Shown here in pieces: positions 2,725-28,342 of a stretch of 30,166 nt of DNA. The DNA is taken from positions 1 to 30,166 of IMG/VR virus record IMGVR_UViG_3300046656_000613, one strand, 5' to 3'. The notes beneath the pieces are model-generated. The model made no database searches, was not told the origin of the DNA, and worked only from the letters and a program-made list of their open reading frames with translations. Origin of the DNA: a virus (taxonomy: Duplodnaviria > Heunggongvirae > Uroviricota > Caudoviricetes). A program made the position numbers and the translations under genes. Numbering within the stretch: position 1 is the stretch's first letter; every line of letters starts with the position of its first letter.

Positions 2725-2727
2725 CAA

Positions 2728-6256: not shown

Positions 6257-7096
6257 TTACGAAGCCACGAATGCGGAGCCGTCGTGAACCATCTTCACGA
6301 TGCCCGAATTCTGGAGCTTCTTGGCGCCGTGCCAGAGAGTTGCACGAGACCAGCTCAGATCCTGCTTGCCGTCATAGTCCACAAGCACCTGCATTTCCTT
6401 GCTGTTGGCAGCATGGCCCATGCTATTCTTGTGGTACATGAAGCAGCTCTCACTGGCGGTGCCGACACCCGGCACGTTCGGATGGATGATCCAGTTCAGG
6501 CCAGCCCACCGGCGCATGCGCTTGGCGGGGCCGACGAAAGGCTTGATCTCCACATAGTCCGCAGAAGAGAACTCCGGCACCTGCATGAGGTAGCCCTCGA
6601 ACGCGGGCGAGATGACCGCGAACATGTTGTCTTCTTCGGTGGTCGGCACCTCGTTGACGCCCAAAATGACCTTGGACTTGATCACGAGGCTGAGATTGGC
6701 CGTAACAGCCGCGCCCGTCGTCAGGGTGGCGGTGTCCAGCTCATCCATGATGACCTGATCGATGTTGCGGTTCATCACCGCGACAGAACCAAGCTGCATG
6801 ATGCGGCGCTGGTCGCCCTGGCTTGCAAAGATGTTGAAGCCGGTGCGCTCGAACGGAGCGTGGTACTCCTGGAGGACGGCAGTGTTCTGCACGTTCTCGA
6901 CAGTGGTGTAGGGGATCAGGCCATTCAGGCCGCGAGTCACAGCGGCAACGCCGCCCGAGCCGGAGACCAGAAAGACCGCCTGATTACCCTTGATTACCGC
7001 TTCTTGCACGCAAGTCATTCTGAGCACTGAGTAATTCTGCTCGAACGCTGCAATGTGCTCGTTGCGGTAATGCGTTTGAAAGGCTGAGTCAGCCAT
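6257..7096 (-). CDS. Major capsid protein (HK97-fold, BPP-1-like podovirus type)
   Basis: AFQTHY...AAFEQNYSVLR...G.QAVF..G...A.TRG..G.IP N-terminus, AVMNRNIDQVI, and C-terminal SW...LWHGAKKLQNSGIVK. Lies downstream of the scaffold; RBS AAGGA. Confidence 0.85.
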   Translation of the reverse strand: MADSAFQTHYRNEHIAAFEQNYSVLRMTCVQEAVIKGNQAVFLVSGSGGVAAVTRGLNGLIPYTTVENVQNTAVLQEYHAPFERTGFNIFASQGDQRRIMQLGSVAVMNRNIDQVIMDELDTATLTTGAAVTANLSLVIKSKVILGVNEVPTTEEDNMFAVISPAFEGYLMQVPEFSSADYVEIKPFVGPAKRMRRWAGLNWIIHPNVPGVGTASESCFMYHKNSMGHAANSKEMQVLVDYDGKQDLSWSRATLWHGAKKLQNSGIVKMVHDGSAFVAS

Positions 7097-10925: not shown

Positions 10926-11357
10926 TTAGCTTTCGGTAATCGACGATCCCGTCGTCAGGCGCACCACTGTATTTTGCTGATAGCTCACGTTCGGCGAGAT
11001 GGTGCCCTTGTAATACAACGCGCCGCCCGTCGAAGCAGAGCTGGCGCCACAACCAAAATGCGTCAGCGTACCCGTAGAGGTGGATGTCGCCGACGGATAG
11101 GTGATTGCCGTCACTGGCGACACCGAGCCGCCAGTGACGGCCCAACCCGCCGTGGTTCGCGCCACAGAGACACGCGCATAGCCAGCATAATTCGCCTCAT
11201 TGGTGCCCTGCGTGCCGGCCTCACCGGGATCTGAGGTATGCAGAGACACCCAAAGACTGGTCAGCGGCGAGATGCCATTTTGGGCAATATTAGCGATTGA
11301 GGTTGCATTGAATAGCAATCCTAAAATCGCGCTTTCATAAACGGCCGTTTTTGACAT
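10926..11357 (-). CDS. Minor structural / 'tail fibre'-family protein
   Basis: WVSLHTSDPGEAGTQGTNEANYAGYARVSVAR motif of a widespread phage structural family. TAATG coupling to the portal stop. Confidence 0.7.
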   Translation of the reverse strand: MSKTAVYESAILGLLFNATSIANIAQNGISPLTSLWVSLHTSDPGEAGTQGTNEANYAGYARVSVARTTAGWAVTGGSVSPVTAITYPSATSTSTGTLTHFGCGASSASTGGALYYKGTISPNVSYQQNTVVRLTTGSSITES

Positions 11358-14067: not shown

Positions 14068-15675
14068 CTAATGCCCGCGGCGCTTTTGCAGCGCGCCACG
14101 CCGGGTGGGCGTGGAATGTTTGGGGAGGTTATGGCGGGGATTGCTGGATTCGCTGGCGGCGGCCCGCTTGCGATTGGCGGTATTGCCGTCATGCCAGCAG
14201 ATCACCACAGAGTCCCCCTTGCCAGGGGAGCGGCCCAGGCGCTTCCGCAGCGCCTCCTTGGACTCGATCTTGATGCCGCCCATCTCGACCGTATAGGTGG
14301 GCGCGGTGAGATCGGCGCGCAGCTCAGCGCCGGGCGGCAAAGCCATGCGCGCACCACCGGGCTGATCGGGATCGAGCGCCTCACGGAACTTCCACCACAC
14401 CTCGGAACGGTGGTTGAAGAACTTCAGCTTGCCGGACTGGTCGCGGCCGACGCCCTCGTGATTGCCGTTATAAAGGTGATAGTCCACCTTGTTGTCGCGC
14501 AGGCGCAGCGAGGTCTGGCCGGCATAGCCGCCACCGCTGTCGATGACGATGATCGCATTGTCGCGCCGGTGCTTGAAGATATGCGCCACGGTGAGCGAGC
14601 CATCGACGGTCTCGGAGCCCTTGGTGGTGACGATCTCGTCGTACCAAAAGTCCCGGCGCATCGCGAGTTCCGCGGTATCCCGCCCGCCGCCTGCCGGGTC
14701 ATAACCCATGGCGGTCATCGTCTTGCCGCGCCCGCCATCCTTGTGCCAGCGGTTCTGCGCCTCGATCACCCAGGTGGTCGGGATGAGCTGATTGGAGGCG
14801 TCCGAGCGCGCGGCCATGAAGTTGCCGTCGCGGATCGCGGAGCGCAGCGGCTCGGGCAGCGCGTCGAGCGTAGCCTGATAGCCGGACTTGATCAGATAGG
14901 GATTGTCAGAAAGCTTGGCGGGGATGAAGCTGCGCGATTTCGGGATGTATGTGGTCTTGTCGCCGTTCACCACATATTCCAGCGGCGTCGGTCCATCCAC
15001 CTCCATATCCTCGCCGTCGGGATTGGTGATGAACCAGCGGATCTCGCCATGCCGGGCCGGGTTGGGGTGGGTCAGATCGAGCCAGGGACGATAGCGCCGG
15101 ATCATCCAGTCGCCGGCCGCGTCCACGGGCGGATTGGACACCAGCAGCGCCCGGCATCGCTGATCCTCGCGTGCCGACCGCAGCCAGCCCAGATGGAACA
15201 GGATCTGTGATTCCAGATGCTGGCAGGCTTCGTCGAACACCTTCAGATCGAAGGGTTGCCCCTGGAAGGACTGCTCATCGCCAGGGTCTTTATGCGCACC
15301 GAACACCAGTAGGCGCTCATCCTTGGTGCGCAGCTTGGGCGGGATCGAGCCGGAGAAGCCGTCGCGCGAGCCGTTGATCTCGATGGCCCGTTCGGTCAGG
15401 CCGCCCAGATCGACATACTGCCGGCGCAGGATCAGCGAGCGGTAATGCGCGGTGAAGGCGAGGCCGAGCGCCAGATCGGATTTCCCGCCCCCGCCCTGGC
15501 CGCCGTAAAGCAGCTCCTGGGCGGGATGGTAATAGGCCGTGTATTGCGGCCCATAATTGGGAATCCAAACCTGCTCGGCCTCGCCTTCAATGCTCTTCTC
15601 CAGCTCGACAAGCTCGGCAGGCGACATCTTGTCGAGCTTTTGCAGCAGCTCATCGAGCGGAGAGAGGGTCATCAC
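14068..15675 (-). CDS. terL: Terminase large subunit
   Basis: Walker A LYGGQGGGGKS, Walker B LKVFDEA, coupling motif SNPP, nuclease MGYDPAGGGRD, C-terminal GDSVV. Confidence 0.92.
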   Translation of the reverse strand: MMTLSPLDELLQKLDKMSPAELVELEKSIEGEAEQVWIPNYGPQYTAYYHPAQELLYGGQGGGGKSDLALGLAFTAHYRSLILRRQYVDLGGLTERAIEINGSRDGFSGSIPPKLRTKDERLLVFGAHKDPGDEQSFQGQPFDLKVFDEACQHLESQILFHLGWLRSAREDQRCRALLVSNPPVDAAGDWMIRRYRPWLDLTHPNPARHGEIRWFITNPDGEDMEVDGPTPLEYVVNGDKTTYIPKSRSFIPAKLSDNPYLIKSGYQATLDALPEPLRSAIRDGNFMAARSDASNQLIPTTWVIEAQNRWHKDGGRGKTMTAMGYDPAGGGRDTAELAMRRDFWYDEIVTTKGSETVDGSLTVAHIFKHRRDNAIIVIDSGGGYAGQTSLRLRDNKVDYHLYNGNHEGVGRDQSGKLKFFNHRSEVWWKFREALDPDQPGGARMALPPGAELRADLTAPTYTVEMGGIKIESKEALRKRLGRSPGKGDSVVICWHDGNTANRKRAAASESSNPRHNLPKHSTPTRRGALQKRRGH

Positions 15676-16559
15676 ATCAGCCCGTTAACCAACTCCGGGA
15701 CCGGCGTGGTGCCCCAGGTGACTGTCTGGGCCTCCCGCATCCTGATGATCTCCGGCCCCACCGCAGGAGACGGCGCGATCGGATCGGCCTTGGTCGGCAC
15801 CTCCGCGCTCGCGGGCGCCTGGGGCGGCGGCAGGTAATCGAACCCGGAGATCAGATCCACCGCGGTGCGATCCTGGACCCAGGTAGCGCGGATGTAGTTC
15901 ACATCCTCGATGGCGCCGCGCAGTTGCAGGATCTCGTTCTTGGCGTTCTCGTAGGTGTTGGTCGCCATGGCCACGCGCTGTTCCAGCTCGTTCTTGCGAG
16001 CCAGCAGCTTGAGATCCATCGGGTCCAGCTCACGGAAGCCATAGAGCGGGGTTGGGCGCAGCAGATCGGACTGCGGCGGCACCGTCACCTTGATGCCCAT
16101 CTCCATCGCCTTGCCGATGAAATACTGGCAGCCGGCGCGCTGGTGGGTATAGACTTCCTCGGCGGCTGACATATCGACGCCCCAAAGGCCAATTTCCTTG
16201 GCACCGGACGCGATCGCCAGAGCAAACATCCATGACAGCGATGAAGTGTAAAAGAAGGTCGCGCCGGGACCGAACAGGCGCATGATCTCTTCTTTGGGGT
16301 AGGGCACCGAACCTGGGATCGCGGCCACATGTTCGAGCATGTAAACAGGCACTGGTAATTTCGCCATGAAATCGATATATTCAGGCGAAAACCATGGTTG
16401 ATGTGGTTCCCAGAGATGGATCTCGAACCACGCATCGACCTTCTTGACATAGGGACGCGCACCCGGTGAGCAGCCCCAGATTTCCCAAGTCGGGTCGGAG
16501 TAGGGAGCCAGCGCCACTGATGATGGCGCTGACCCGATCAAAGCGATCTTCTTCGTCAT
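15672..16559 (-). CDS. Putative Maf/Cst-II-like (GT-A variant) nonulosonate transferase
   Basis: N-terminal KIALIGSAPS, IWGCS, FYTSSLSWMFALAI, and GAKEIGLWGVDM parallel the IIAGNGPS...KEIYLSGIDF architecture of CMP-nonulosonate transferases. C-terminal coiled coil. Stop overlaps the terL start. Confidence 0.5.
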   Translation of the reverse strand: MTKKIALIGSAPSSVALAPYSDPTWEIWGCSPGARPYVKKVDAWFEIHLWEPHQPWFSPEYIDFMAKLPVPVYMLEHVAAIPGSVPYPKEEIMRLFGPGATFFYTSSLSWMFALAIASGAKEIGLWGVDMSAAEEVYTHQRAGCQYFIGKAMEMGIKVTVPPQSDLLRPTPLYGFRELDPMDLKLLARKNELEQRVAMATNTYENAKNEILQLRGAIEDVNYIRATWVQDRTAVDLISGFDYLPPPQAPASAEVPTKADPIAPSPAVGPEIIRMREAQTVTWGTTPVPELVNGLM

Positions 16560-16566
16560 GAAGTCC

Positions 16567-17034
16567 TTACGAAGATGTTGAGATGGTGAAATACAAGGAA
16601 GACTGCGGGAACGAGACCGGCGCCCACTGCGCAGTCGAGATCGCGCGCAGAACCACGCGGGCGCCGACGTTGAGCAGGTTGAGGCGCTTGACGTTGCCTT
16701 CCGTTGCGCCTTCCGTGGTGCCCGATGTCACCGGCAGGAAGTTGCAGGCCCCGTTCGCGGTGGAACGGACGATCGCCATCGTCGCCGTCGAGATCGACGA
16801 AGCGTTGATGATCTCCTTCTGCTGGCCGACCTTCTCGGGGGCGAGCAGTGTGAAGGTGGCGGTGGAGCCGGTCAGGACGGAAGTGCCGACCGAGTCCAGA
16901 GTCGATGCGGCGCTCACGCTCTCCAGCGGCTCACGGAAACCGGGAGGGCCGGCGAGGAAGCGGTCATTATCGAGGCCAAGTTCCCGACCCCGGATCGAGG
17001 TCTGAATCTCTGCGCCCCAGCGATTTGCAGGCAT
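16567..17034 (-). CDS. Ser/Thr-rich hypothetical, probably a small virion protein
   Basis: 155 aa, beta-rich and Ser/Thr-rich; RBS AAGGA; ends 7 nt before the next gene. Confidence 0.6.
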   Translation of the reverse strand: MPANRWGAEIQTSIRGRELGLDNDRFLAGPPGFREPLESVSAASTLDSVGTSVLTGSTATFTLLAPEKVGQQKEIINASSISTATMAIVRSTANGACNFLPVTSGTTEGATEGNVKRLNLLNVGARVVLRAISTAQWAPVSFPQSSLYFTISTSS

Positions 17035-17157: not shown

Positions 17158-17406
17158 ATGCGGGACAGAAGCAGATCAGAGCGCCGGCACCACGCCGCGC
17201 GCTTGAAAGCCAGGGCGCGATGGATCGCCGGAAACATTTGGGGTCAGGATCGTGAGCAGCGCATTCACGCTGAGCGACTCGCAGATCACTTGGCATATTG
17301 CATGCGACCATGCTGCAATCGTCGGCGGCTACACGAGGGCCGCACTATTCAGGAGAAACGCTATGGGCTGGGGTCCGGTGACGACAATCAAGATGCCGAA
17401 GAATGA
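17158..17406 (+). CDS. Small basic Cys-containing phage protein
   Basis: RSRSERRH...K.R...LA.....C..PCCNRRR...G.T.QE pattern that I recognise from small phage ORFs; RBS GAGG. Confidence 0.55.
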   Translation: MRDRSRSERRHHAARLKARARWIAGNIWGQDREQRIHAERLADHLAYCMRPCCNRRRLHEGRTIQEKRYGLGSGDDNQDAEE

Positions 17407-18529
17407 AGACTTGCTGGCTGATTACGCTAAATACATACGCGAGCATCTTGATAAGAAAATCTTCTCATCCATGTTTATCGGAACCTTCCCGACGATGCTG
17501 GGCGACCCCCAGATCAACATGCCGATGACAGCCACGGAAGTCCGAGCAAAAAAAGAGGCCGCATACAAGGCCCTCAAGACCCGTCTAACCACGCAACTGA
17601 AGGAAAAGAGTATGGAGTCCGAAGAGATCCTGGAAGAGGCGGCGGTGCCGACCCAGCCCATGCCGATGACGCATCACAACCTCATGGCAGCCAGAAATGC
17701 ATTGGTGGCGCGCGGCGTCAGCCCCAGCGATGTTTCGATCGTCCTGCCCGGAGAGAGCTTTCGCTATATTCTCTGCTCGATCAACCAGCCGCCAGCATAC
17801 CGTTTCCGCTTTGCCGACATGGAGATTCTAACTGGCAACGACACCGGACCGCACGGGCGGCGTGAAACGCAGATCTACTTCGCCGGGCACGTCCCGCCGA
17901 ACATGGAACCCGTTGCCCGCGAGGTATTCGCATGCCTCCTGGGGTGTCGCGTCAGTGAACTGCCACATCGCGCCCGCTGCAACAGCGTGGGCACCATGGC
18001 GTATAGCATGAGCGAAATCGCCGTAACCCCCCGCCCCGCCAGCGGCAACAACCGGAATCCGCGTCGCCTCAGCGATCTCTCTTATGAGGAGAAGGTCGTA
18101 GCCGCAAAGGAGTCCGTCGCGGCTTACACTCGTGACAAGAAGCTCCCCAGCGCCGAGATGCTCGCATTGTACCGCGAACTTGACGGCATCCGCACGGCGA
18201 AGAAATGGACCGGAGCGGGCGCGGTCGGGCGCGTCGATCAGCTTGGCAACCTCACCATCAGCGGCCTGCCCGAGGGCGAGCTGGTAAACTGGACCACCGA
18301 GCCTCTTCGGGTCCGGGCCACCAGCATCGTCATCAACTTCCGGCCCAAGGGCGGGGAGCTGAAAAGCGCGCTCATCCCCATCGTCTACGATGTCGATGGC
18401 AACCGTCACGGCCTGACTTCCGAAGCACTCAGCCGCGCGGCTGATAAGGTCGGGGGCTTCGAGCGCGGCGGTCCGAATCGCGACTTTATCGGCGCCGCAG
18501 CGCAGAGCTTCGCGAAAATGCTCGACTGA
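17393..18529 (+). CDS. Hypothetical protein (378 aa from ATG 17393) whose 3' 702 nt overlap the HisF-like gene antisense
   Basis: The first 145 codons do not overlap HisF and read as protein (DLLADYAKYIREHLDKK, EVRAKKEAAYKALK). The ATG overlaps the end of the upstream + gene. There is no stop until 18529. Confidence 0.55.
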   Translation: MPKNEDLLADYAKYIREHLDKKIFSSMFIGTFPTMLGDPQINMPMTATEVRAKKEAAYKALKTRLTTQLKEKSMESEEILEEAAVPTQPMPMTHHNLMAARNALVARGVSPSDVSIVLPGESFRYILCSINQPPAYRFRFADMEILTGNDTGPHGRRETQIYFAGHVPPNMEPVAREVFACLLGCRVSELPHRARCNSVGTMAYSMSEIAVTPRPASGNNRNPRRLSDLSYEEKVVAAKESVAAYTRDKKLPSAEMLALYRELDGIRTAKKWTGAGAVGRVDQLGNLTISGLPEGELVNWTTEPLRVRATSIVINFRPKGGELKSALIPIVYDVDGNRHGLTSEALSRAADKVGGFERGGPNRDFIGAAAQSFAKMLD

Positions 18530-18781
18530 GCGTATTCCACCACCAACAGTGAGCGGGGACATGATCACCCCGCTCAATTCCTTGATCAGCTCGAAATCCG
18601 GCTCCCGGCCTTCCGGGGTAGCGCCGATATCGAGGAGCACCAGCTCATCGACCCCGCGCCGGGCATGCACCCGCACCGCGTTGACCACGCTCCCCACCGA
18701 TCGCCACCCGTCGAACTGCTTCCCTTTCACGGCTTGATGGCCGCGATATAAAATTACTGGAATTATTCTAGTTTTAAGCAA
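17828..18781 (-). CDS. HisF-like (WbuZ/AglZ-type) protein associated with acetamidino sugar modification, with an internal insertion
   Basis: TTG start LKTRIIPV, VKG, VDELVLLDI, PLTVGGGIRS, GADKV, GAGELLVTS..RDG..GYDL, PVVAAGGAG. The position of HisF catalytic Asp11 is Leu. Adjacent to an N-acetyl-sugar amidotransferase. Confidence 0.8.
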   Translation of the reverse strand: MLKTRIIPVILYRGHQAVKGKQFDGWRSVGSVVNAVRVHARRGVDELVLLDIGATPEGREPDFELIKELSGVIMSPLTVGGGIRSVEHFREALRCGADKVAIRTAALEAPDLISRAAECFGSQAVTVAIDIVDDGDERAFQLPALGPEVDDDAGGPDPKRLGGPVYQLALGQAADGEVAKLIDAPDRARSGPFLRRADAVKFAVQCEHLGAGELLVTSVSRDGLLCGYDLLLIREIAEATRIPVVAAGGAGGYGDFAHAIRHGAHAVAAGAMWQFTDATPQEACEYLAGNGFHVRRDVPGEVDLRFTPPVRSGVVAS

Positions 18782-18839
18782 TCCGTGCCTTGCCCTGCCC
18801 TGCCAATCCACGCCCGGCCATGCCATGCCCCACCGTGCC
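18780..18839 (-). repeat. Twelve consecutive 5-nt GGNNN units (consensus GGCAN)
   Basis: Minus strand: GGCAC GGTGG GGCAT GGCAT GGCCG GGCGT GGATT GGCAG GGCAG GGCAA GGCAC GGATT. Confidence 0.8.
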
Positions 18840-18844
18840 GTAAC

Positions 18845-19972
18845 CTACCTAGCCAAAAAGGAATTTTCCCAGACGGCGGGCTTCATCATCGGCCACTGGC
18901 CCGGCGCATCCGAGACATCGAACAGATCTTTGTTCGCATAATGCTGGGCGATCGCGATGAACTCGTTGAAGGTCAGACCGATGTGGCTGAGGGCGTCAAC
19001 CAGATCGATACCCATGTAGTTCCACGGGATTTTCCCGTCGTCCTGGCGGACAATATCGATAGCTTCCTCACGAGAAATCATTCCGTAACGGATGTCAACA
19101 GAAATCTGCGCGCAAAGTCTATTGTACGCGAATTTAAGATACCCAAAATAGTCATGAATTGACGTCTGCCCGTTATCGAGATTCTCTGCTGTCCACCAAG
19201 AATGCGGCATTGGCTTGACTGCCTGCATGCCGGCCGCCACCGCCACCCTTGCATTGCGATGACTGTCCCAGGGGAAGTAAGCCCCGAGGAAGTGGGCCTC
19301 GATCCCGTCGGTGTCCGCGGGCATCATGTAATAAGCTATGTCCTCCCGGCGCAGCCCATGCTGTCCCACCAGATCGACCGGACGCATGCCGAGATGGCCG
19401 CCGAACTCGGTGATCCAGCGGCGAGTCATCTGCCGGGCCTCAAGCGAATCCATCGGCCCGCCATAGGCGTTCTGCGGGCACTCGCCATAGAAGATCAGGG
19501 GGATTTGGTGCATTTTGGCGATGCGCCAAGGCACGTGGAAAATGCTTACGTGTTCCGGCCAGCCGATGTCGCCCACCAGCTCCAGACTTAAGCGGTTTAA
19601 CAGTGCCCGAACCCGCAGGTTCGGAGTGGCCTCGATGGTGTCGGCGTATCGGGCAAGGTTGCGGATGTTCGCCTTGCCGATTTCTGTGAGCATACAGGTA
19701 GTAGCTGTAACAACAAGGGGTCTCACCCCAAGTTCAATAAGCTTTAATACCTGCCAATGACTGTCCTTGCCACCCGAGGACGGCACAATGCAGTGGTAGC
19801 CGTCAGGAGATACTTTGGCAGATTCGAGAATACCCAGCAAGTCCTCTTTACGCCGCTCCCAATCGATCTCATGACGTTTTTTGAAAGAGATGCAGGCCGA
19901 GCACACCCCATCCACGAAGGCGGTATCGGGCCGGGTCGTGGGCATCAGGCATTCTTTGCAGCGCACCAGCAT
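18845..19972 (-). CDS. N-acetyl sugar amidotransferase (WbuX/PseA-like, PP-loop)
   Basis: RCKECLMPTTRP...DGVCSAC, PP-loop CIVPSSGGKDS, WPEH, FYGE, and ISVDIRYGMISREEA. Confidence 0.9.
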   Translation of the reverse strand: MLVRCKECLMPTTRPDTAFVDGVCSACISFKKRHEIDWERRKEDLLGILESAKVSPDGYHCIVPSSGGKDSHWQVLKLIELGVRPLVVTATTCMLTEIGKANIRNLARYADTIEATPNLRVRALLNRLSLELVGDIGWPEHVSIFHVPWRIAKMHQIPLIFYGECPQNAYGGPMDSLEARQMTRRWITEFGGHLGMRPVDLVGQHGLRREDIAYYMMPADTDGIEAHFLGAYFPWDSHRNARVAVAAGMQAVKPMPHSWWTAENLDNGQTSIHDYFGYLKFAYNRLCAQISVDIRYGMISREEAIDIVRQDDGKIPWNYMGIDLVDALSHIGLTFNEFIAIAQHYANKDLFDVSDAPGQWPMMKPAVWENSFLAR

Positions 19973-20598
19973 CAGGCGACCTTCTCAAATAGGGTATATA
20001 CGAGGTCATCTTGAGGGGCGACCGGATCGCGGCTCCAGGCGAAGCCGACATTGCGCACCTCTAGGCCGGGGAACATGTCCAGCATGTCCGCGGCGAAATC
20101 TCTTTTCCATAATTTACCTGCGTGCCCGCGATATTCCACCTCGACCGGCACAGGATTATGATATTCGGCCAAAAAGATAAAGCGCCGGCTCGCCCGGTAC
20201 AGCGCCCCGTAGGCGCGAGCCAATTGCTGCGGGGGGACGTGAATCAACAGGCCCTTGGATAAAACCAGATCATAGCCCCCGCCCCAGGGCTCTTCCGGCT
20301 CCAGCATCGACATCTGAAACGTCTTCACCCCAGCATCGCACAGCTTGCTGGCCGCGAGGGCGTTCACCTCGACTCCGGTAAACTCGCAGTGTGCATAGGC
20401 ATTGATCTGCCGGAGTGCGGCGATGTTGAGGCCGACATTGGCGCCGAACTCAATCACTCGGGTTGGCGTGGCGAAAAACGTCGGCGACAACGCCTTGCGG
20501 AATAGAACCACATTGTTAAATATCAGTCTATCACTTTGATTTCTTTGGGTATAGCTGTCCCCAAAATCGCCTTCCCAGAATTTTTCCGTCTCGCTCAT
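19972..20598 (-). CDS. Pseudaminic acid biosynthesis-associated SAM methyltransferase
   Basis: FWEGDFGDSYTQRN, IEFGANVGLNI, GLLIHVPP, AEYHNPVPVEVEYRGH..KLWKRDFA. ATG 20598 with RBS AAGGG; TGATG coupling to the amidotransferase. Confidence 0.9.
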   Translation of the reverse strand: MSETEKFWEGDFGDSYTQRNQSDRLIFNNVVLFRKALSPTFFATPTRVIEFGANVGLNIAALRQINAYAHCEFTGVEVNALAASKLCDAGVKTFQMSMLEPEEPWGGGYDLVLSKGLLIHVPPQQLARAYGALYRASRRFIFLAEYHNPVPVEVEYRGHAGKLWKRDFAADMLDMFPGLEVRNVGFAWSRDPVAPQDDLVYTLFEKVA

Positions 20599-20603
20599 GG
20601 CCC

Positions 20604-20646
20604 TTGACACCCGTTATAATTATAACTACGTTTGCGCCACATCCAA
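20604..20646. promoter_or_regulatory. Overlapping divergent promoters around a 14-bp palindrome GTTATAATTATAAC (20613-20626)
   Basis: Plus strand: TTGACA (20604-20609)-N17-TACGTT (20627-20632). Minus strand: TTGGAT (20646-20641)-N16-TATAAT (20624-20619). Confidence 0.65.
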
Positions 20647-20659
20647 CCAGAAGGGTCAC

Positions 20660-21385
20660 ATGTCGCAAACATCCATCACGCTTTTGCTCGACCGCTCCGG
20701 CTCCATGAACCAAATCCTTGAGGACACCCTCGGCGGGTACAATTCCTACAAGAATGGCCTCAAGGGAATCGACGCGCTGTTCTCCCTCATTACTTTCGAT
20801 TCCATCGGGATCGACAAGATCCATCTGCATCTGCCGATCAACGACGTGCCGGACCTGACCCGCAAGGAATTCATTCCGCGCGGCAATACCCCGCTGCTCG
20901 ATGCCGCGATGAAAACCATCCAGGCGGTGGAGCGCGCGGTCTCCGACAAGCCCGACACCAAGGTGGTGATCACCATCCTCACTGACGGCGAGGAGAACGA
21001 CTCCAAGCTGTATGCATGGCTGGACCTGGAAGACACGATCCGCAGAAAGCAGGAACTCGGCTGGCAGTTCGTCTTCCTCGGCGCCGGCATCAATGCCTAC
21101 AAGCAGGCTGGACGGATGGGCATCTCGGCCGGGCAAACCGTGTCTTATGACAGCTCAGATCGGGTCTCCACCCAGAGCGTGTTCGAGGAAACTGCCGCCA
21201 ACACCCGCGCCTATGCGTCCGGCGAAGCCGCGACCATGGAATACACAACTGATCAGAAGGCCGCCGCCAAGGACGCCTATATCCCCATGGCCGACCATGC
21301 GGTCTGGGATCTGATGCAGAAAAGGCCGGCAGCTCCAAAGCCGGCGCCGCAGCCGCTCGGCCCCGTCCAGGACTTCGATCTGTAG
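20660..21385 (+). CDS. von Willebrand factor A (VWA) domain protein
   Basis: MIDAS motif LLDRSGSM, PRGNTPLLDA, ILTDGEENDS, WQFVFLGA. ATG 20660 with RBS AAGGG. Confidence 0.9.
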   Translation: MSQTSITLLLDRSGSMNQILEDTLGGYNSYKNGLKGIDALFSLITFDSIGIDKIHLHLPINDVPDLTRKEFIPRGNTPLLDAAMKTIQAVERAVSDKPDTKVVITILTDGEENDSKLYAWLDLEDTIRRKQELGWQFVFLGAGINAYKQAGRMGISAGQTVSYDSSDRVSTQSVFEETAANTRAYASGEAATMEYTTDQKAAAKDAYIPMADHAVWDLMQKRPAAPKPAPQPLGPVQDFDL

Positions 21386-21392
21386 GAGTTTC

Positions 21393-21698
21393 ATGAAGCC
21401 TCCTGGCCCAACCAAGTACGGCGCCATGCTGAAGCGTCTGATTGAGCAACGCGGCGTCACCCAGACGCTGCTTGCCAATCGCGCCAAGGCAGCGAGCGGC
21501 CTCTCGATCTCCCAGGCAAGACTCAATCTTGTGCTGAGGGGGCGGATCAAGGTGCCGCCCCATTGGGTGGCGGTCTTGCCCAGCGCGATCGATGCCTCGC
21601 CGCACCAGCTCAACCTGTTGAGAATGGCGGCAGAAAAGGATCACGGGCACAAACTCGACATCCCGCCCATCCCAGACAAAAAAGAGGCCCCGGAGTGA
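21393..21698 (+). CDS. XRE/Cro-like HTH transcriptional regulator
   Basis: LKRLIEQRGVTQTLLANR.......SQARLNLVLRG; RBS AGGAG. Confidence 0.7.
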   Translation: MKPPGPTKYGAMLKRLIEQRGVTQTLLANRAKAASGLSISQARLNLVLRGRIKVPPHWVAVLPSAIDASPHQLNLLRMAAEKDHGHKLDIPPIPDKKEAPE

Positions 21699-21711
21699 TC
21701 CGGGGCTTTTT
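21678..21711. terminator. Bidirectional intrinsic terminator
   Basis: A-tract, then stem GCCCCGGA / loop GTGA / TCCGGGGC (21687-21706), then TTTTT. It lies between the convergent HTH and pseI stops. Confidence 0.85.
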
Positions 21712-22748
21712 CATATCCACTTCACCATGTGCTCGGCCAGCGGCGTGCCGGCCGGAAGGTGGGTGGTGGCCAGCGAGCCGATCACCTTGGAATACATCGA
21801 CGGCGCCATGCCCAGCCCCGGCCGAATCGAGCGGACATTGTTCGAGGTGAACATGTCCCCCTCCCCCATGGCCTCCACGACGTACAGAGAGCGCCGCAGG
21901 GGCGCATGGACGCTATCGTCGCGGGCAGCGTTCCAGGGCGCGTCCCGCGGCCCCAAAGCCACGCTGGCGCGGGTCACATCGTTGACAAAGGCGGCGAACT
22001 GATCCGCCCCGAGCGCGAACCGATCGTCGGCACCTGTCCCGCCCGGCGTCAGCGTGATATGCTTCTCAATCAGACAGGCCCCCATGGCGACCGCCATCTG
22101 CGCCGTCGCGACCCCCAGGCTGTGATCAGACAAGCCGACGTAATTGTGCCGGCGCATCAGCATCTGCATGAACCGCAGGTTGGCTTGCTCCAGCAGCGTG
22201 GGATAGGTGGAGACGCAATGCAGCCAGATCGAGGGGTGGCTGCGCACGACATCATCGGCCATGCGGATCTCGCCGAAGCTGGCCATGCCGGTGGACAGGA
22301 TCAGCGGCTTACCCTCCCAGACCGCCGCCTTGATCAGGATGGGATCGACCAGCTCGAAGCTGGCGATCTTGAGCGCGGGCGGATCGAACTGCTTCACGAA
22401 GGCGATGTCCTCAAGCGAGAACACCGACGGGAACAGCGGGATGCTCATCTCCTTGGCGACCGCGTACATCTCCGGGAACCACTCGCGCGGCGTATAGGTG
22501 TCGCTGTAGAGATCGTGGAGGTGCCGACCGGCCCAGGGGCCGCCCTGGATGATGAACTCGGGCCGATCGAACTTGGCGGTGATGGTGTCCGGCGTAAATG
22601 CCTGGACCTTAACCGCATCAGCGCCAGCCCCCGCCGCCCGGTGGATCAGCTCCAGCATCGCCGACTTGGAGCCGTTATGCGCGCCGCCGATCTCGGCGAT
22701 GATCATCGGCCGCAGGGCGGCGGCAAAATCGAAATTGGCTATCTTCAT
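21711..22748 (-). CDS. pseI: Pseudaminic acid synthase (NeuB/PseI family)
   Basis: IIAEIG..HNGS, ADAVKVQ, KIASFELVD, KPLILSTGMAS, LHCVSTYP, GLSDHS, IEKHITL, and C-terminal SAF/AFP-like RRSLY...IRPG.G. Confidence 0.9.
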   Translation of the reverse strand: MKIANFDFAAALRPMIIAEIGGAHNGSKSAMLELIHRAAGAGADAVKVQAFTPDTITAKFDRPEFIIQGGPWAGRHLHDLYSDTYTPREWFPEMYAVAKEMSIPLFPSVFSLEDIAFVKQFDPPALKIASFELVDPILIKAAVWEGKPLILSTGMASFGEIRMADDVVRSHPSIWLHCVSTYPTLLEQANLRFMQMLMRRHNYVGLSDHSLGVATAQMAVAMGACLIEKHITLTPGGTGADDRFALGADQFAAFVNDVTRASVALGPRDAPWNAARDDSVHAPLRRSLYVVEAMGEGDMFTSNNVRSIRPGLGMAPSMYSKVIGSLATTHLPAGTPLAEHMVKWI

Positions 22749-23188
22749 TCGCGCACCAACTCATAGGTGTTCTGACAATGCCGAAATCCCAGCGCCTCAA
22801 ACATCCCGATCGAGCGCCCATTGCTGGGGTTGATGTTGGCCAGATACCGGCCCGGCCCATGATGCGTCATCGCCGTCTGGATCGCTCGCTTGCCGTAACC
22901 CTGGCCGCGGAATTTCTTGCGGATGAAAATGCCGAACTCACTGCCGGAAACGCTCGGCCGCGGCGGCTTGGTGAGGTAGAGCGAGCCGACGGGTTCACCG
23001 TGCTCATTCTCCAAAATGTACCACGCCTGATAGGGGTGATTCTCAACGAAAGCCTTGTGGCTTTCATAGGTGACGCTCTTGGGATCGTGCGAAATATTGA
23101 CCTTCGAATCCCCAGCGCGCTCGCTCAAAATCTCATAGAGAACATCCACTGCATTGGGATGAATCACTATGTCAACCATTCGCATCAT
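22745..23188 (-). CDS. GNAT N-acetyltransferase (PseH role inferred from context)
   Basis: GIFIRKKFRGQGYGKRA acetyl-CoA motif, NPSNGRSIGMFEALGF. ATGA-coupled on both sides. Confidence 0.8.
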   Translation of the reverse strand: MMRMVDIVIHPNAVDVLYEILSERAGDSKVNISHDPKSVTYESHKAFVENHPYQAWYILENEHGEPVGSLYLTKPPRPSVSGSEFGIFIRKKFRGQGYGKRAIQTAMTHHGPGRYLANINPSNGRSIGMFEALGFRHCQNTYELVRE

Positions 23189-23844
23189 GCTCTCGCCACT
23201 TCCAGTAAGTTGGCCGCACCCTTGGCGCCCTGGAACACCTTAACGATGCGCGCATAGTCGTCGATCGTGTCCAAGGTCCACCTCAAATGCGAGTAATCGC
23301 CATAGGGGCAGGGCACATTGACATGCCGCGCACCCGTCGCCGCCGCGCGCATCTTTGTCGTCACGTGCTCACGGGATTCGCTATCCCAGGTGTTGTGCAC
23401 ATGCCAGTCCAGCGCGCGCATGGTGAACGCCTCGCAGGCATAGCCCAGCGGCCATGTGTCCGGCAGGACGTTGCAGGCATATGCTAGCCCATGAACGTTG
23501 CGTTGCGCAACAACGGCGTCGATCATCTCGCTGGGAATCGCCGGGCAATCAGAGGTGACGCGCACGATGATGTCCGCGCCAACGGATCTGGCCGCCATGT
23601 GGTAGCGCATCAGCACGTCACCTTCTGGCCCATAGACGATGCTGGCCCCACCCGTGAACGGCGTGAGGATCTCGCTATCCTCGCTGTCGGGCATGGCTAC
23701 CACCACCTGATGGATCGAGCGCGCCTCGCGGCAGCGATAGATCACTTCCTCCAGCACGGTGCGCCCGGTCGGAAGCGGCAGCAGGATCTTGCCCGGCAGC
23801 CGGGTGCTGCGGAGCCTTGCCTGAATCACGGCGACTGTCTTCAT
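23185..23844 (-). CDS. pseF: Acylneuraminate-type cytidylyltransferase (SpsF/PseF-like)
   Basis: AVIQARLRSTRLPGKILLPL, G.EGDVLMRY, IVRVTSDCP, REHVT, RWTLDT.DD. Confidence 0.82.
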   Translation of the reverse strand: MKTVAVIQARLRSTRLPGKILLPLPTGRTVLEEVIYRCREARSIHQVVVAMPDSEDSEILTPFTGGASIVYGPEGDVLMRYHMAARSVGADIIVRVTSDCPAIPSEMIDAVVAQRNVHGLAYACNVLPDTWPLGYACEAFTMRALDWHVHNTWDSESREHVTTKMRAAATGARHVNVPCPYGDYSHLRWTLDTIDDYARIVKVFQGAKGAANLLEVARA

Positions 23845-24494
23845 TGGAATGCCGGAAACGTTGAGAGATCAGGATAGTCGGAGCGCAACAAATCAGCGTT
23901 GTGACGCGGCAGCGAGGAGAGCTTCCACAGCAGCGCGGCCGAGACGTCTGGCGATAGGTATGCGTGCCACGCCCGCCCCTGATGCCGCACGCCGTCAGCG
24001 ATTGGCGCCCCCTCGGTGCGCCCGTCGAAGCGCGCGCGGCGCAGCCAGCCGTCTGCGGCAGCGTTGTTATGGAGGATGGCGCCGCCCTGAGTATGGCCGA
24101 GGATCTTGGTGTTATGGAAGCTCACGCACTGGAAAAATGAATGGGCGTCTCCGGCATCCCACAAATTTGACTCGATGGCCGAGAACATCCCTCCGGTGAA
24201 CCGCCGCGCAGAATCCCAGAGCAGCAGCGGGCTGATTTGGTGTTCACCCTGCCAGTCCTCATCGCGGAACTCCACCCTATAGCCGGCCTCCTTCAGCGCA
24301 TAAACAACTCCGATGTACGTCAGCCGAGGCAGGGAAACGATGTCGCCATATGGCGCGTACCGATGCTGCCGCAGCCACGCGGCTGCGATCAGGATCGCCA
24401 TCGTGCAGCTATTGACCACCACAGCATAAGGAGCGCCGGTGTATTTGCACAGCGCCGCTTCGAAATCGCGAGTGATCTGGAAGGGGTCGCTCAT
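23841..24494 (-). CDS. pseC: DegT/DnrJ/EryC1/StrS PLP aminotransferase (PseC-like), unusually short
   Basis: FEAALCKYTGAPYAVVVNSCT.A, WDSA, and CVSFHNTKILGHTQGGAIL containing the PLP lysine. Only 217 aa. Confidence 0.78.
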   Translation of the reverse strand: MSDPFQITRDFEAALCKYTGAPYAVVVNSCTMAILIAAAWLRQHRYAPYGDIVSLPRLTYIGVVYALKEAGYRVEFRDEDWQGEHQISPLLLWDSARRFTGGMFSAIESNLWDAGDAHSFFQCVSFHNTKILGHTQGGAILHNNAAADGWLRRARFDGRTEGAPIADGVRHQGRAWHAYLSPDVSAALLWKLSSLPRHNADLLRSDYPDLSTFPAFQ

Positions 24495-25378
24495 TTGCCT
24501 GGATGCCTCTCATCGAACCATTGGCGGATATGCTCGCGCAGCTCCTCCACCGTCATCCGCCGCGCGGTATCGGACGATCGCTCGAAATCCATGCTTTCAT
24601 GCTTCTTCTCATGCGGGGGCAGGCCAGTGATCTGCATGCCCACCCGCAGCGCGTTGACCAGATCCTCCAGCCGATAGGCCGGCAGGTTGGGAATCGCGAT
24701 ATCGCCGGGCTTGCCGTGAACCGCTGCGCCCATCACCAGCTCGACCGCCTCCTGCATCGACATCCAGAATCTGGTGCATTCAGGGTCCGTGACCGGCACG
24801 GTTCGCGCCCCCGCGCCGATCATCTCCACCCAGCGCGGCAGCACCGAGCCGGCAGACCCCCAAACATTTCCGTATCTTGTGATCACGAAGGTCGGGCCGT
24901 GCGCGCCTGATGTCTCGTTGGCCGCCAGCAGAAGCTGTTCCATCAGCAGTTTGGAGGTGCCGTAGGCTGAGATCGGCTGGAACGCTTTGTCTGATGACAG
25001 TCCCACCACCTTGCGGACCGCGGCCAGCCGGGCCGCCTCAACGACGTTGATGGCACCGAGCACGTTGGTCTTAACCATCTCCTCGGGATTAAAGCGGCCC
25101 ACCTCAATCCGCTTCAGCGCGGCGGCATGGACCACGAGCTGCACGCCCTGCATAGCGCGCACCAGCCGGGCCTGATCGCGCACGTCGCCGATGAAGAACC
25201 GCAGTCGCGGATCATCCTTCAGCTCCGCGCGCATGGCGGCCTGGGTGTGCTCGCCCCGAGAATAGACGCAGACCCGCTCGGCGAGGTCGTGCTGGAGCAA
25301 GAAACGACAAAAGGCGCGACCGAACGAGCCGGTCGCGCCTGTGACTAGAATATTGGGTATTGTTGAGAGATCAAGCAT
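24491..25378 (-). CDS. pseB: UDP-N-acetylglucosamine 4,6-dehydratase (PseB/FlaA1 family)
   Basis: ILVTGATGSFG, IGDVRD, HAAALK, LSSDKA..P..AYGTSKL, RYGNVWGSAGSV, TRFWM. Start placed at ATG 25378 (295 aa). Confidence 0.9.
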   Translation of the reverse strand: MLDLSTIPNILVTGATGSFGRAFCRFLLQHDLAERVCVYSRGEHTQAAMRAELKDDPRLRFFIGDVRDQARLVRAMQGVQLVVHAAALKRIEVGRFNPEEMVKTNVLGAINVVEAARLAAVRKVVGLSSDKAFQPISAYGTSKLLMEQLLLAANETSGAHGPTFVITRYGNVWGSAGSVLPRWVEMIGAGARTVPVTDPECTRFWMSMQEAVELVMGAAVHGKPGDIAIPNLPAYRLEDLVNALRVGMQITGLPPHEKKHESMDFERSSDTARRMTVEELREHIRQWFDERHPGK

Positions 25379-25439
25379 CGCCCCAGATTGGAGGGCTTCG
25401 CCCATGCCGACAAGACCGATGGACACTTTGTCCACCAGC

Positions 25440-25733
25440 TCAGTACAGCCCCCAGATCGCAGTCGTGCCCGAGATCGAATACACCGCCTTGGCCCCGATC
25501 GGATTGTCGAACGCTTTAATGGGAAATCCATCAAGCGTCGTTCCAGCGTGATCCATGAAACTCATGGTTCCGCTGGAAATACTCTGGATCGCCCGGCATG
25601 GACCGAACGGCAATAGCGCTGCCGTCGTGCCCGTGGCCGGCGTGATCGGCTGGATAAACATCGCCGGATCACCGCGCATTCCAGAATAGCTGCCCCTGTT
25701 GGCACCGCTGGTGCCGGCTTCAACTCCGCTCAT
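25440..25733 (-). CDS. Head-spike base-like protein (resembles RcGTA Rcc01079 family)
   Basis: ITP......L..RAI....G......G......P.G...V....GTT.IWGLY pattern; about 97 aa; RBS GGAG. Confidence 0.55.
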   Translation of the reverse strand: MSGVEAGTSGANRGSYSGMRGDPAMFIQPITPATGTTAALLPFGPCRAIQSISSGTMSFMDHAGTTLDGFPIKAFDNPIGAKAVYSISGTTAIWGLY

Positions 25734-25792: not shown

Positions 25793-27268
25793 TCAGGAGA
25801 GCACCGTTGCGTTATAGAACGCCTGCCCAAGGGATTTCATTCCGGCCGCGTTGTAGTGCACAAGGTCGCCAAGCAGCGCAAGGCTGTCTGTGTCTATGAG
25901 CGTAGCAAAGCCGGAATTGGCTGCTACAAAAGCCGCCTGCGCGGCTCGCACCTGCGCAACCGCTGTTGGGTTAAATGTCGGGTCTTGATCTCGGATGCGG
26001 GCTACGACGGCCTGAAGGCCTGTGACAGCGGTATACAGCTTCGCCTGATCGTAAAGCGACTGTAGACTTGCCTGATACCCAGCTGACGCTGTTGTATTGG
26101 TGGCGTCTTGCTCTCCTTGCATCCACCACAGTCCCCGCAACCTAGGGCCGATGCCCAGGCTCAAATAGTATTGCTCAAGGTCGTACCAATTGCGCAATGC
26201 GTTCTGGAACAGCGATGATTCGACTGGTTCCGCAGTATTCCACGACGTCCCCGACGTTGCGACGCCAGCCGATGTCGGTGAGAGATAAGTCGAACCCACC
26301 GCAGTTTTGGAAAACATCAAACCCGTCGCGCCGCCGCCGTCTTCACGTAACCAAGCGGCACCCATTTCCGGGCCAAAATCAGTGGCGGGCAAAGTCTGCT
26401 GTTGATTTGTCCCCATAGTTAGCGAGGCAGGAGGGTAAATAAGACTGTTGCCCAGCGAGCCGGATGCGGACAGGATGAAGCTATTCGCAGGCGTCGTTCG
26501 CGCTTGATCGGCACCCGATAGGCCGGAAATAGGCGCGCGCCCGTCAGCGTTTGATTGCCCCCATAGCGCAACGACATTGCGGAAGGTTGAGCAATCCCGC
26601 CAATCAATGGGTTTGCCGCGAAGTTTGGCTAAATTCCGCACATATCCATACGCGTCTGATCGGTTCTGATCTGTCAGTTGCCCCGACCATGCCGCCGCCC
26701 ACATGATCTCAAAATCTGCACAGCGACTGCTTGTGAGGCCGTATCGTCCACCAAAACCGAAGGGGTTGCTAGCGGCTGCGTTGAACTCGCAAAAGAGAAG
26801 GATAAATCCGCCACGGTTTATTCTGTCTGCAAAAGTGCCATTAGACCTTTTGCGCAACGGCGCCACCCCTTGGCCGCTACCAACAAGCCATGTGTACGTT
26901 GCCGAGGCGTAAGCCCCCTGAGCACCGTCGCTACTCCCGGCTGTCCCTCCCGAGAACTCAAAACCTGCCGCCTCACCGCGCCCCACCCGGTAGAGGAACG
27001 CAACGGTGCGGCAAGATGTTATCGCAGGCGTTTGAATCAGCCCTGCTGCCAGCGAAATGCCGTAAGGCTGCCACGTGAAATTCGGCGTCGTCGGCAGTGC
27101 CAAGTTGATATCGTTCGCGCCAACCTCATCATTGACGCTGTTGCCGCTGCCTTCGGCGAAGCGCCATTCGGAGATCAGACCGGACGCAGGCAATGGCGGC
27201 ACGGGAGCAGCCCCTCCCCCACCTCCCAGCGCCCCGATGCCGAGACCGATTTCTAGATTTATAGACAT
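25793..27268 (-). CDS. Head-spike/fibre-like protein with C-terminal sialate O-acetylesterase (SASA, SGNH hydrolase) domain
   Basis: N-terminal LEIGLGIG..GGGG anchor-like motif. SGNH blocks WGQSNADG, WWMQGEQDA, DLVHYNAAG. ATG 27268 with RBS GGAGGAG (491 aa). Confidence 0.8.
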   Translation of the reverse strand: MSINLEIGLGIGALGGGGGAAPVPPLPASGLISEWRFAEGSGNSVNDEVGANDINLALPTTPNFTWQPYGISLAAGLIQTPAITSCRTVAFLYRVGRGEAAGFEFSGGTAGSSDGAQGAYASATYTWLVGSGQGVAPLRKRSNGTFADRINRGGFILLFCEFNAAASNPFGFGGRYGLTSSRCADFEIMWAAAWSGQLTDQNRSDAYGYVRNLAKLRGKPIDWRDCSTFRNVVALWGQSNADGRAPISGLSGADQARTTPANSFILSASGSLGNSLIYPPASLTMGTNQQQTLPATDFGPEMGAAWLREDGGGATGLMFSKTAVGSTYLSPTSAGVATSGTSWNTAEPVESSLFQNALRNWYDLEQYYLSLGIGPRLRGLWWMQGEQDATNTTASAGYQASLQSLYDQAKLYTAVTGLQAVVARIRDQDPTFNPTAVAQVRAAQAAFVAANSGFATLIDTDSLALLGDLVHYNAAGMKSLGQAFYNATVLS

Positions 27269-27299
27269 CTTAAATCTCCTCCCAGATTTTCGCCCAGGA

Positions 27300-27986
27300 T
27301 CATTCATGGATCGTGACCTTTTCTTCGATGATGTGAGGAATACCTTTCAGCTCACCACCTTCATCGGCGGCCCGCTGCATGATGTTGAGCACGCGACGCG
27401 CAATCTCGATCTTCGACTGCCGGGGCTGGCCCACCGGGTGAAGCGGCGCACCGTCGGCACCCGTCACTTCGCGACGATCTTTCCACTTATCCGGGCGCCG
27501 GTTCTTCAGCCAGTTCATCGCCGCCTTGGGATCGGGGGGAATATGCTCGATAACTTTGGCACGTGAAACATTGCCGTCCTTATCGAAGTGAACCTTTTCG
27601 GACGGAAGTTCGTAGCCAAGCGCGCGCTTCACCAGCGCCTCTTCGACACGATCATCGACCACCGCCTTGCCGAGCTTGCAGGCTTCGGCGAATTCGGAAT
27701 ATTGCGCGCGCCACAGGCGCAGCGTTTCCACGTGAACTTCGAGAAACTCGGCCACCTCAACGTCGATCCAGCCCTTGGTGAACAGCTTGCGCGCCTGGGC
27801 GCACATCTCGGGCCGGTATTTGGTTTTGGATTTCCGCTCCTCGGAGAACTGATCGCGCAGCCACGCGATATATTCCTCGTGCTCGGGAGTGCCAAGCCGC
27901 GGCGGCTCGCGACCGACATAGACCGCGCCGCTGCGATACATGTGATCGGCGTTCTCGCCGAGATCGACATCATCATCCTCAAGCAT
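27300..27986 (-). CDS. terS: Terminase small subunit
   Basis: KYRPE......G..D.EVAEFLEV...TL..W...Y.EF.EA.K.GK...D..VE.AL..RALGY...PPDPKAAMNWLKNRRPDKWKD. ATG 27986 is TGATG-coupled to the upstream gene (228 aa). Confidence 0.88.
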   Translation of the reverse strand: MLEDDDVDLGENADHMYRSGAVYVGREPPRLGTPEHEEYIAWLRDQFSEERKSKTKYRPEMCAQARKLFTKGWIDVEVAEFLEVHVETLRLWRAQYSEFAEACKLGKAVVDDRVEEALVKRALGYELPSEKVHFDKDGNVSRAKVIEHIPPDPKAAMNWLKNRRPDKWKDRREVTGADGAPLHPVGQPRQSKIEIARRVLNIMQRAADEGGELKGIPHIIEEKVTIHE

Positions 27987-28342
27987 CAGTGCCTCGTTTC
28001 CAGATGGGGGATGGAGAATCCGATCGGCCATTTGCCGACCGCCGCAAGCTCGCGCAGGACTCTCTCGCCGAGCTTGAAGGTGTAGGGGTAATAGTGATCC
28101 ACGCCGTTGATCGGCAGCCAGAACACGAACACCACCGTGGCGATCATGTGAAATTCTTGTATGACAAAATTGTCCTCGGTCAGCGTGATGTCCTTCGGCG
28201 CGCCGGCCTTGTGGAAATAGTTCGCCGCCTCCTGCGCCGCCTGCTCGACCATGCCGAGGATGCCGGCCCACTTCTCCACGGGCGCGACCTTGCCGCGGCC
28301 GATGCCTTCGAGAAGTTCGCCTTCGGTTTTGTTTAAGCCCAT
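27986..28342 (-). CDS. Hypothetical protein upstream of terS
   Basis: Protein-like 118 aa; its stop overlaps the terS start. Confidence 0.65.
   Translation of the reverse strand: MGLNKTEGELLEGIGRGKVAPVEKWAGILGMVEQAAQEAANYFHKAGAPKDITLTEDNFVIQEFHMIATVVFVFWLPINGVDHYYPYTFKLGERVLRELAAVGKWPIGFSIPHLETRH

Follow-up and report, generated by a model that had tools for sequence, protein, structure and literature searches.

A putative nonulosonate transferase with a sialyltransferase-like fold, paired with a fibre-like protein in the packaging region of uncultured phages

The complete Caudoviricetes genome IMGVR_UViG_3300046656_000613 of the IMG/VR collection (94,166 bp, with direct terminal repeats) carries, within its first 30,166 nucleotides, a gene for a 295-amino-acid (aa) protein that ends on the start of the gene for the large terminase subunit (terL). 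This 30,166-nucleotide stretch, the whole of the DNA analysed here, is called the window, and the gene at 15672..16559 on the minus strand (product P0001) is called the target. On balance, the target is probably a minimal Maf-like transferase that uses a pseudaminic-acid-type sugar activated by cytidine monophosphate (CMP) to glycosylate a protein of the virion, with its neighbour as the likeliest acceptor. The assignment as a transferase, taken by itself, can be made with somewhat greater assurance, and the choice of the 155-aa protein encoded just upstream as the acceptor is tentative.

The target is a real gene and not a chance open reading frame (ORF), since one search returned 1118 homologues and an exhaustive search returned 3477 representative clusters (50% identity; E<=0.001), its ATG is preceded at a spacing of 5 nucleotides (nt) by an AAGGA ribosome-binding site, and the gap to the gene upstream is a mere 7 nt. 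At its other end, the minus strand reads CTG ATG TGA TGA CC. The target stop, TGA at 15674..15672, overlaps by four bases (GTGA) with a GTG at 15675..15673 and by one base (TGATG) with an alternative terL start, the ATG at 15672..15670; both candidate starts are in the terL frame (MMTLSP...). An earlier note on this DNA, made from the sequence alone, had described the ORF, these overlaps and the peptides KIALIGSAPS (residues 4-13), FYTSSLSWMFALAI (103-116) and GAKEIGLWGVDM (119-130), and all were found as described.

A first indication of what the protein may do comes from its predicted fold. A model built with AlphaFold2 (AF2) from an alignment of 82 diverse sequences, which also served as the family profile, has a mean predicted local distance difference test score (pLDDT) of 88, with 219 residues at 90 or above. 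It consists of an alpha/beta core (residues 1-170), one long helix (180-227) and a tail that is probably disordered. What the earlier note proposed as a C-terminal coiled coil is, in the model, this single, confidently predicted helix, and what follows it is the tail. Four helix residues, K184, R188, E191 and G215, show conservation among the 16 nearest cluster representatives. Tails vary among 80 related loci, with a VNG motif in the nearest relatives and Lys/Arg-rich ends elsewhere; VNG was considered as a universal C-terminal docking motif and dropped, being restricted to those nearest relatives.

Structural comparison of the model with VIA-align ranked the Magnetospirillum magneticum Maf protein (MmMaf) 5mu5_A first (Z 11.9; root-mean-square deviation 2.8 over 154 residues, pairing model residues 1-169 with chain residues 271-500) and the sialyltransferase Cst-I (2p56, Z 10.3) second. 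These were followed by MptE (8sd5, Z 9.8) and SteA (Z 9.5), with thiamine pyrophosphokinases (TPKs) at Z 6-7.4 and GT29 sialyltransferases at about 7. The top Foldseek hits in the PDB were Cst-II structures (1ro8_B, E 3e-5, probability 1.0), and in the AFDB clusters DUF115 proteins ranked directly after the target's own unnamed family. In agreement with the Maf/Cst-II-type fold that the earlier note had anticipated, the model therefore has a modified GT-A/sialyltransferase-like central domain, as in 5mu5, and the Cst-II fold with a GxGPS-type loop and a TSG...GID-type motif. A fold search of Swiss-Prot gave Bacillus subtilis TPK first (E 3.6e-4) and then many argininosuccinate synthases at low TM-score, and was judged uninformative.

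Sequence searches place the family outside the described ones. The target found no usable match in Pfam (E<=10), PHROGs, NCBIfam or the PDB sequences, and the 82 family members matched no relevant Pfam model, giving only scattered coiled-coil noise. The Maf model, PF01973, matched neither these members (E<=1) nor a six-frame translation of the 94-kb genome, and the Cst model, PF06002, matched neither the target nor the members. The best hits of the family profile among PDB sequences were nonetheless GT42 chains (E 0.32-0.95, over about 30 residues only), in which fTSs..wmlAlAie.g..eIglwGvDm aligns to the Cst-type ITSG-VYMCAVAIAMGYTDIYLTGIDF (E 0.3-0.9), a likeness that is real, if weak in sequence. 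Six bacterial PF01973 genes (open frames of 438-878 aa) were fetched for comparison. Their alignment to the family with hhalign pairs only the TSS...GVDM motif, weakly (E 0.023), placing S106 and D129 on a conserved Ser and Asp of the bacterial proteins, which also carry GAGPSL at the place of the target's GSAPSS loop. Since both sequence-model tests failed and the domains that flank the Maf core are absent, we regard the target as a phage-specific variant of the sialyltransferase/DUF115 fold and do not count it among the PF01973 or GT42 proteins.

Conservation across the 82 sequences is concentrated at positions that the model places, without exception, at the ends of strands or the beginnings of helices. 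G9, H48, E135 and Q140 are invariant, S14, E46, S106 and D129 are conserved in at least 90%, and G127, M130, S164 and Y173 are also invariant or nearly so. Judged from the model, these positions sit where the Maf/GT42 fold binds its nucleotide. TSS...GVDM is the counterpart of TSG...GID in Cst-II and of GGS...GxD in Maf. Maf activity requires a conserved Ser (S334 in the Clostridium botulinum enzyme, CbMaf), an acid 23 positions further on (CbMaf D357, MmMaf D415) and an earlier acid at the end of strand 3 (MmMaf E324, CbMaf D272) (bioRxiv 10.1101/2020.06.03.131540). The spacing between S106 and D129 of the target is likewise 23. Going by topology and spacing, E46/H48 may be the counterpart of the earlier Maf acid (the V-D-P / L-E-G position).

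In two homologues (P0186, at L095:8001-9713 and L096:2224-3936, and P0230), the GVDM(S/A)x motif is immediately followed by an intein of about 275 aa, with a Cys start, an end at HN followed by T, and a LAGLIDADG-like block, YLAAAFDGEGH. Inteins favour functionally critical sites, and the insertion right after GVDM thus fits an active-site motif; to our knowledge, an intein within a gene of glycosyltransferase fold is unusual. The neighbouring terL of L095 (906 aa) also has homing-endonuclease hits.

Constant company provides the second line of evidence. In 73 of 81 loci, an iterative profile search found a member of one small protein family directly upstream of the target, and most of the loci without it simply lack upstream sequence. 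The partner in the window is 155 aa long, carries the family's conserved N-terminal motif TSIxGRxLGLD and ends in ISTSS. Its AF2 model (pLDDT 78) is a beta-sandwich that matches modules from phage tailspikes and from a capsid spike, namely Solidus gp83 (Z 10.9), CBA120 TSP4 (Z 10.2) and the Pa223 capsid spike (Z 7.9), against a background of Z <5, and that also resembles many uncharacterised phage fibre proteins. Ser and Thr make up a mean of 26% of the partner family, and at least three of the last six residues are Ser or Thr in 44 of 53 members. The partner is thus a candidate acceptor or virion anchor. A complex prediction for target and partner scored 0.00, was run without controls and was counted neither for nor against binding.

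Other fibre-type genes lie nearby. A 143-aa protein at 10926-11357 (-) matches PF23140 (Gp80, the fibre I protein of podophage GP4; E 3e-18) and ends in TTGSSITES, which makes it a possible second acceptor candidate; hhalign found no relationship between it and the partner family. Window positions 1-4605 (-) hold two probable tail-spike or fibre genes, one for a 625-aa protein with a pectate-lyase-like beta-helix and one for a protein of >909 aa with a Laminin_G_3/ConA-like lectin domain.

The third line of evidence is the sugar itself. Upstream of the partner lies a block of genes for the synthesis and tailoring of a pseudaminic-acid (Pse)-type sugar (Table 1), and such genes occur in 33 of the 35 loci with at least 6 kb of upstream sequence. 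At the level of whole records, NeuB/PseI is present in 14 of the 15 genomes that hold the target and have a completeness of at least 90%, compared with 3 of 50,697 deposited phage records for the same NeuB query. This co-occurrence had been put forward in the earlier note as a check on its proposal that the target is the missing 'writer' of the CMP-sugar. That proposal gains further from the fold and from the 94-kb genome, in which GT2, GT4 and GT28 gave no match and the target is therefore the sole candidate transferase among the families tested; the activity, the donor and the acceptor we infer.

Two further ORFs are of note in this region. A 504-aa protein at 25793-27307 (-), between the small terminase gene (terS) and the sugar genes, has a C-terminal SASA (sialate O-acetylesterase/SGNH) domain; it might modify the sugar or target glycans of the host. 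A 425-aa ORF at 17252-18529 (+) runs antisense to the WbuZ/HisF-like gene at 17828-18826 (-), matches nothing in Pfam or PHROGs and gives weak tblastn hits only where the HisF-like gene of relatives lies, a pattern compatible with its being the shadow ORF of a gene rich in GC.

The arrangement of the locus bears on which molecule would receive the sugar. Among 80 related IMG/VR loci, collected with a 16-sequence alignment, terL follows the target in 76 of the 77 that hold a terL, within 1.7 kb and often within a few bases, and a T7-type portal gene comes next. In the window, terS lies 11 kb upstream of terL, with the sugar genes, the partner gene and the target in between. In several other phages, the sugar genes lie upstream of terS, and the interval from terS to terL keeps the 155-aa gene and the target. 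In L016 (IMGVR_UViG_3300014059_000115), the WbuX-like and HisF-like genes are found not upstream of the target but in the interval from terL to the portal gene, which indicates that the sugar genes move around the packaging module. The partner also occurs in L008, L077, L083, L084, the divergent L085 and L087, a fragment of an HK97-type siphovirus. In L087, partner and target come after the major capsid gene and before the connector genes, and no terminase lies in the vicinity. Pairing of target and partner is thus kept across phage architectures and terminase adjacency is not. The coupling to terL emphasised in the earlier note is real as an overlap and as synteny within one phage group, but it is not the defining link, and the terminase was rejected as a functional partner. 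The L087 target (L087:4894-6408, P0264) is extended at its N-terminus by a domain of about 280 aa that weakly matches PhyH, a 2-oxoglutarate (2OG)-Fe dioxygenase family (E 0.0014, below the cut-off); a fusion of hydroxylase and glycosyltransferase would recall the hydroxylysine glycosylation of collagen type.

These arrangements also weigh on an alternative in which an enzyme of the same class modifies something other than a virion protein, namely the host surface (flagellin, pilin, S-layer or lipopolysaccharide, for example to block superinfection) or packaged DNA. The fold and the sugar genes would apply equally well to either, the known Maf substrates are host flagellins (bioRxiv 10.1101/2020.06.03.131540), and DNA would suit a gene so tightly joined to that of the packaging enzyme. 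This alternative is nevertheless unlikely, as the target belongs to a morphogenesis operon and not to the early or replication genes, its constant neighbour has a fibre/spike fold, and the terminase is absent from its surroundings in L087. For DNA in particular, which the earlier note had named as a second acceptor, nothing was found in support: no DNA-binding or base-flipping element was seen in the target, and no member of its fold is described as acting on DNA in the literature consulted.

A second alternative, which we consider improbable, makes the target an enzyme of small molecules, either a pyrophosphokinase of the MptE/TPK type or one of the enzymes of the sugar pathway itself, standing in, for instance, for the missing nucleotidase PseG. 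The genome nowhere matches PseG or GT28 and its PseC-like ORF is short, which leaves the Pse pathway, as annotated, incomplete or dependent on substitutes yet to be recognised. However, target and partner persist in phages without the whole pathway (L007/G001), as an enzyme of that pathway would not. The alpha/beta core of the target is also that of MptE (8sd5) and TPK (3lm8). MptE, an archaeal 6-hydroxymethylpterin pyrophosphokinase (HPPK), falls under the same Pfam family as Maf and scores almost as high as Cst-I, the TPKs reach about 7, and a TPK was the best Swiss-Prot hit; the fold alone therefore cannot settle the chemistry, and it is the genomic context that tips the balance. Set against this, the best structural and profile hits are transferases, the thiamine-binding beta-sandwich domain of TPK is absent from the target model, and the genomic context is one of CMP-sugar synthesis and virion genes, with no pterin or thiamine genes seen among the neighbours.

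A very improbable third alternative, that the target is a non-catalytic accessory with an enzyme fold (a chaperone or adaptor for the fibre protein, or a terminase-associated factor), can draw on the terL adjacency, on the long helix and the varied, frequently basic tails, which might serve for docking to proteins or nucleic acid, and on SteA, a regulator of the same fold, but it sits poorly with near-invariant polar residues (G9, E46, H48, S106, D129, E135 and Q140) at active-site-loop positions, with the intein at the GVDM motif and with the strong co-occurrence with the CMP-sugar pathway.

Several observations weigh against the transfer of a Pse-type sugar to a virion protein by a Maf-like enzyme, as proposed here. 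The Maf and Cst sequence models miss the family, and the profile similarity is weak (E 0.02-0.9). Maf proteins have about 600 residues, with N- and C-terminal domains flanking the core, whereas the target offers only a core of about 170 residues and a helix. The catalytic His188 and the phosphate-binding Tyr156 and Tyr162 of Cst-II have no recognised equivalents in the target, and E46/H48 is a counterpart of the first Maf acid by topology only. MptE, TPK and SteA share the fold at similar scores, and the fold, itself a prediction, leaves the chemistry unfixed. Fibre proteins are often rich in Ser and Thr anyway, as the Gp80-like protein at 10926-11357 illustrates (30% Ser plus Thr). The co-occurrence counts come mostly from one related phage group and are not independent events. 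Lastly, the family also occurs in G001 (96% complete) and in the complete genome of Microcystis phage Mvi-Yong1342-1, neither of which has a NeuB or CTP_transf_3 gene, so the donor need not be made by the phage. Maf enzymes accept CMP-activated N-acetylneuraminic acid (CMP-Neu5Ac) as well as 3-deoxy-D-manno-octulosonate (CMP-Kdo) (bioRxiv 10.1101/2020.06.03.131540), and it is plausible, by analogy, that the NeuB-less relatives use a donor supplied by the host.

Among deposited phage genomes, Mvi-Yong1342-1 (L001, PP496355.1, 34781-35584) alone has a family member, at 35% identity. Its gene directly precedes terS-terL, and the annotation as 'type 11 methyltransferase' is unsupported by the fold found here; the 41-kb genome yielded no gene for NeuB, a cytidylyltransferase or the partner family. 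A motif-based scan of bacterial genomes found the family on only 2 short contigs of metagenome-assembled genomes, both with the partner gene, which are probably phage fragments.

Table 1. Coordinates of the target, its sequence elements and the genes around it in the window.
Feature	Position	Strand	Basis
Major capsid protein (Phage_capsid_2)	6257-7096		
Large terminase subunit terL, 535 aa	14068..15675	-	phrog_979, E 2.2e-24
Target/terL stop-start overlap, ATG TGA TG	15670..15677	-	Sequence
Target gene: core 1-170, long helix 180-227, probably disordered tail ~240-295	15672..16559	-	ORF, homologues, AF2, fold matches
Target: low-confidence C-terminal tail ending ...PELVNGLM	15675..15842	-	pLDDT 44-69
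Target: long helix 180-227	15879..16022	-	DSSP on AF2 model, pLDDT >95
Target: E134-E135...Q140 acidic/amide patch, start of helix 137-153	16140..16160	-	Conservation; intein just before in some homologues
Target: core motif T105-S106...G127-V-D129-M130 (TSSLSWMFALAIASGAKEIGLWGVDM)	16170..16247	-	GT42 hidden Markov model alignment; hhalign E 0.023
Target: E46-I-H48, C-terminal end of strand 3 (strand 43-45)	16416..16424	-	Conservation and model
Target: G9-S-A-P-S-S14 loop after strand 1, counterpart of the Maf/Cst-II GxGPS nucleotide-binding loop	16518..16535	-	Conservation, PF01973 GAGPSL, structural alignment
Partner gene, 155 aa, Ser/Thr-rich, fibre/spike-type beta-sandwich	16567..17034	-	Synteny, AF2, fold matches
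Pseudaminic-acid-type biosynthesis/tailoring block, all genes	17828..25534	-	Pfam, NCBIfam
WbuZ/HisF-like	17828-18826	-	NCBIfam E 2e-64
WbuX amidotransferase	18845-19972	-	NCBIfam E 4e-68
Pse-associated methylase (Pse_Me-ase)	19972-20610	-	NCBIfam E 4e-58
Two overlapping ORFs, 201 and 186 aa, without family, between methylase and PseI	20531-21650	-	
PseI	21711-22748	-	NCBIfam E 8e-98
GNAT	22745-23188	-	Pfam/NCBIfam
Cytidylyltransferase	23185-23844	-	Pfam/NCBIfam
Short PseC-like ORF, 217 aa; profile positions 32-100 of 380 matched	23841-24494	-	
PseB-like	24491-25534	-	Pfam/NCBIfam
Small terminase subunit terS	27300..28271	-	phrog_309, E 4.7e-40

Among described systems, the Maf (motility-associated factor) transferases, which O-glycosylate flagellin with nonulosonic acids (PF01973; 5mu5, C. 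botulinum, G. kaustophilus), are the closest in structure and share the GxxPS loop after strand 1. As with maf, the target gene adjoins nonulosonate genes and the gene of a Ser/Thr-rich protein of surface-filament type, the neighbour being the presumed substrate. In contrast to Maf, the target is encoded by lytic phages, in an operon for head and packaging proteins, is nearly absent from the motif-based bacterial scan, and would have a phage fibre/spike protein as its acceptor instead of flagellin. The GT42 enzymes Cst-I and Cst-II and their Pasteurella multocida homologue (1ro7, 1ro8, 2p56, 9c08; PF06002) resemble the target in size, in the C-terminal helical extension of Cst-II and in the motif ITSG..MCAVAIAMGY.DIYL.GID, set beside TSS..MFALAIASGAKEIGLWGVD in the target. 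Their similarity in sequence is, however, not significant, their acceptors are sugars of lipooligosaccharide and not proteins, and the invariant His of the target family, H48, lies in another region of the chain than His188 of Cst-II.

Modification of the virion by phage enzymes has a precedent in mycobacteriophages, where, as far as the work of Freeman et al. (2023, Cell Host Microbe) is related in PMC12619734, phage transferases modify the phage's own structural proteins and glycans lie at the C-termini of capsid and tail-tube proteins. The candidate acceptor described here similarly ends in a run of Ser and Thr. By annotation, the mycobacteriophage genes are ordinary putative glycosyltransferases, whereas the system proposed here would combine a CMP-nonulosonic acid made by the phage with an enzyme of sialyltransferase fold, and its partner is a dedicated small fibre-like protein. 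In the literature consulted, virion glycosylation was found for mycobacteriophages only, with nothing on phage-encoded transfer of nonulosonates to virions, and searches combining phage with pseudaminic or nonulosonic acid, or with DUF115, returned no description of such a system.

In the mechanism favoured here, the target would be expressed late, in one operon with the genes for packaging and the head, and its donor would be a pseudaminic-acid-type sugar activated with CMP. That sugar is probably an acetamidino and/or methylated Pse derivative produced by the neighbouring phage genes; in relatives without sugar genes the host may supply a CMP-ulosonic acid. The sugar would be transferred to Ser/Thr hydroxyls of a phage structural protein, for which the upstream 155-aa beta-sandwich of fibre/spike type, with its Ser/Thr-rich C-terminus, is the likeliest candidate. 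Target and partner would then act as a module of enzyme and substrate, like maf beside flagellin genes. A more general proposal, which has a reasonable chance of being right but falls short of probable, is that a two-gene module of a small fibre/spike-type protein and a minimal sialyltransferase-fold enzyme, usually accompanied by a phage-encoded Pse pathway, is widespread among phages and coats part of the virion with an acidic nonulosonic sugar.

The pairing of the enzyme gene with its neighbour makes the idea of glycosylation directly testable. If true, it would be the first sialic-acid-like glycosylation of a bacteriophage particle and would reveal a new glycosyltransferase family that current sequence models miss, giving a function to a family that is blank in Pfam, PHROGs and NCBIfam. 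A nonulosonate transferase core of about 170 residues would also be an addition to the glycoengineering toolbox. For the phages themselves, it would mean that a large uncultured group, represented by thousands of family clusters, decorates its particles with a bacterial mimic of sialic acid, which could alter adsorption, resistance to enzymes of the host or the environment, sticking to mucus and recognition by the immune system of animals.

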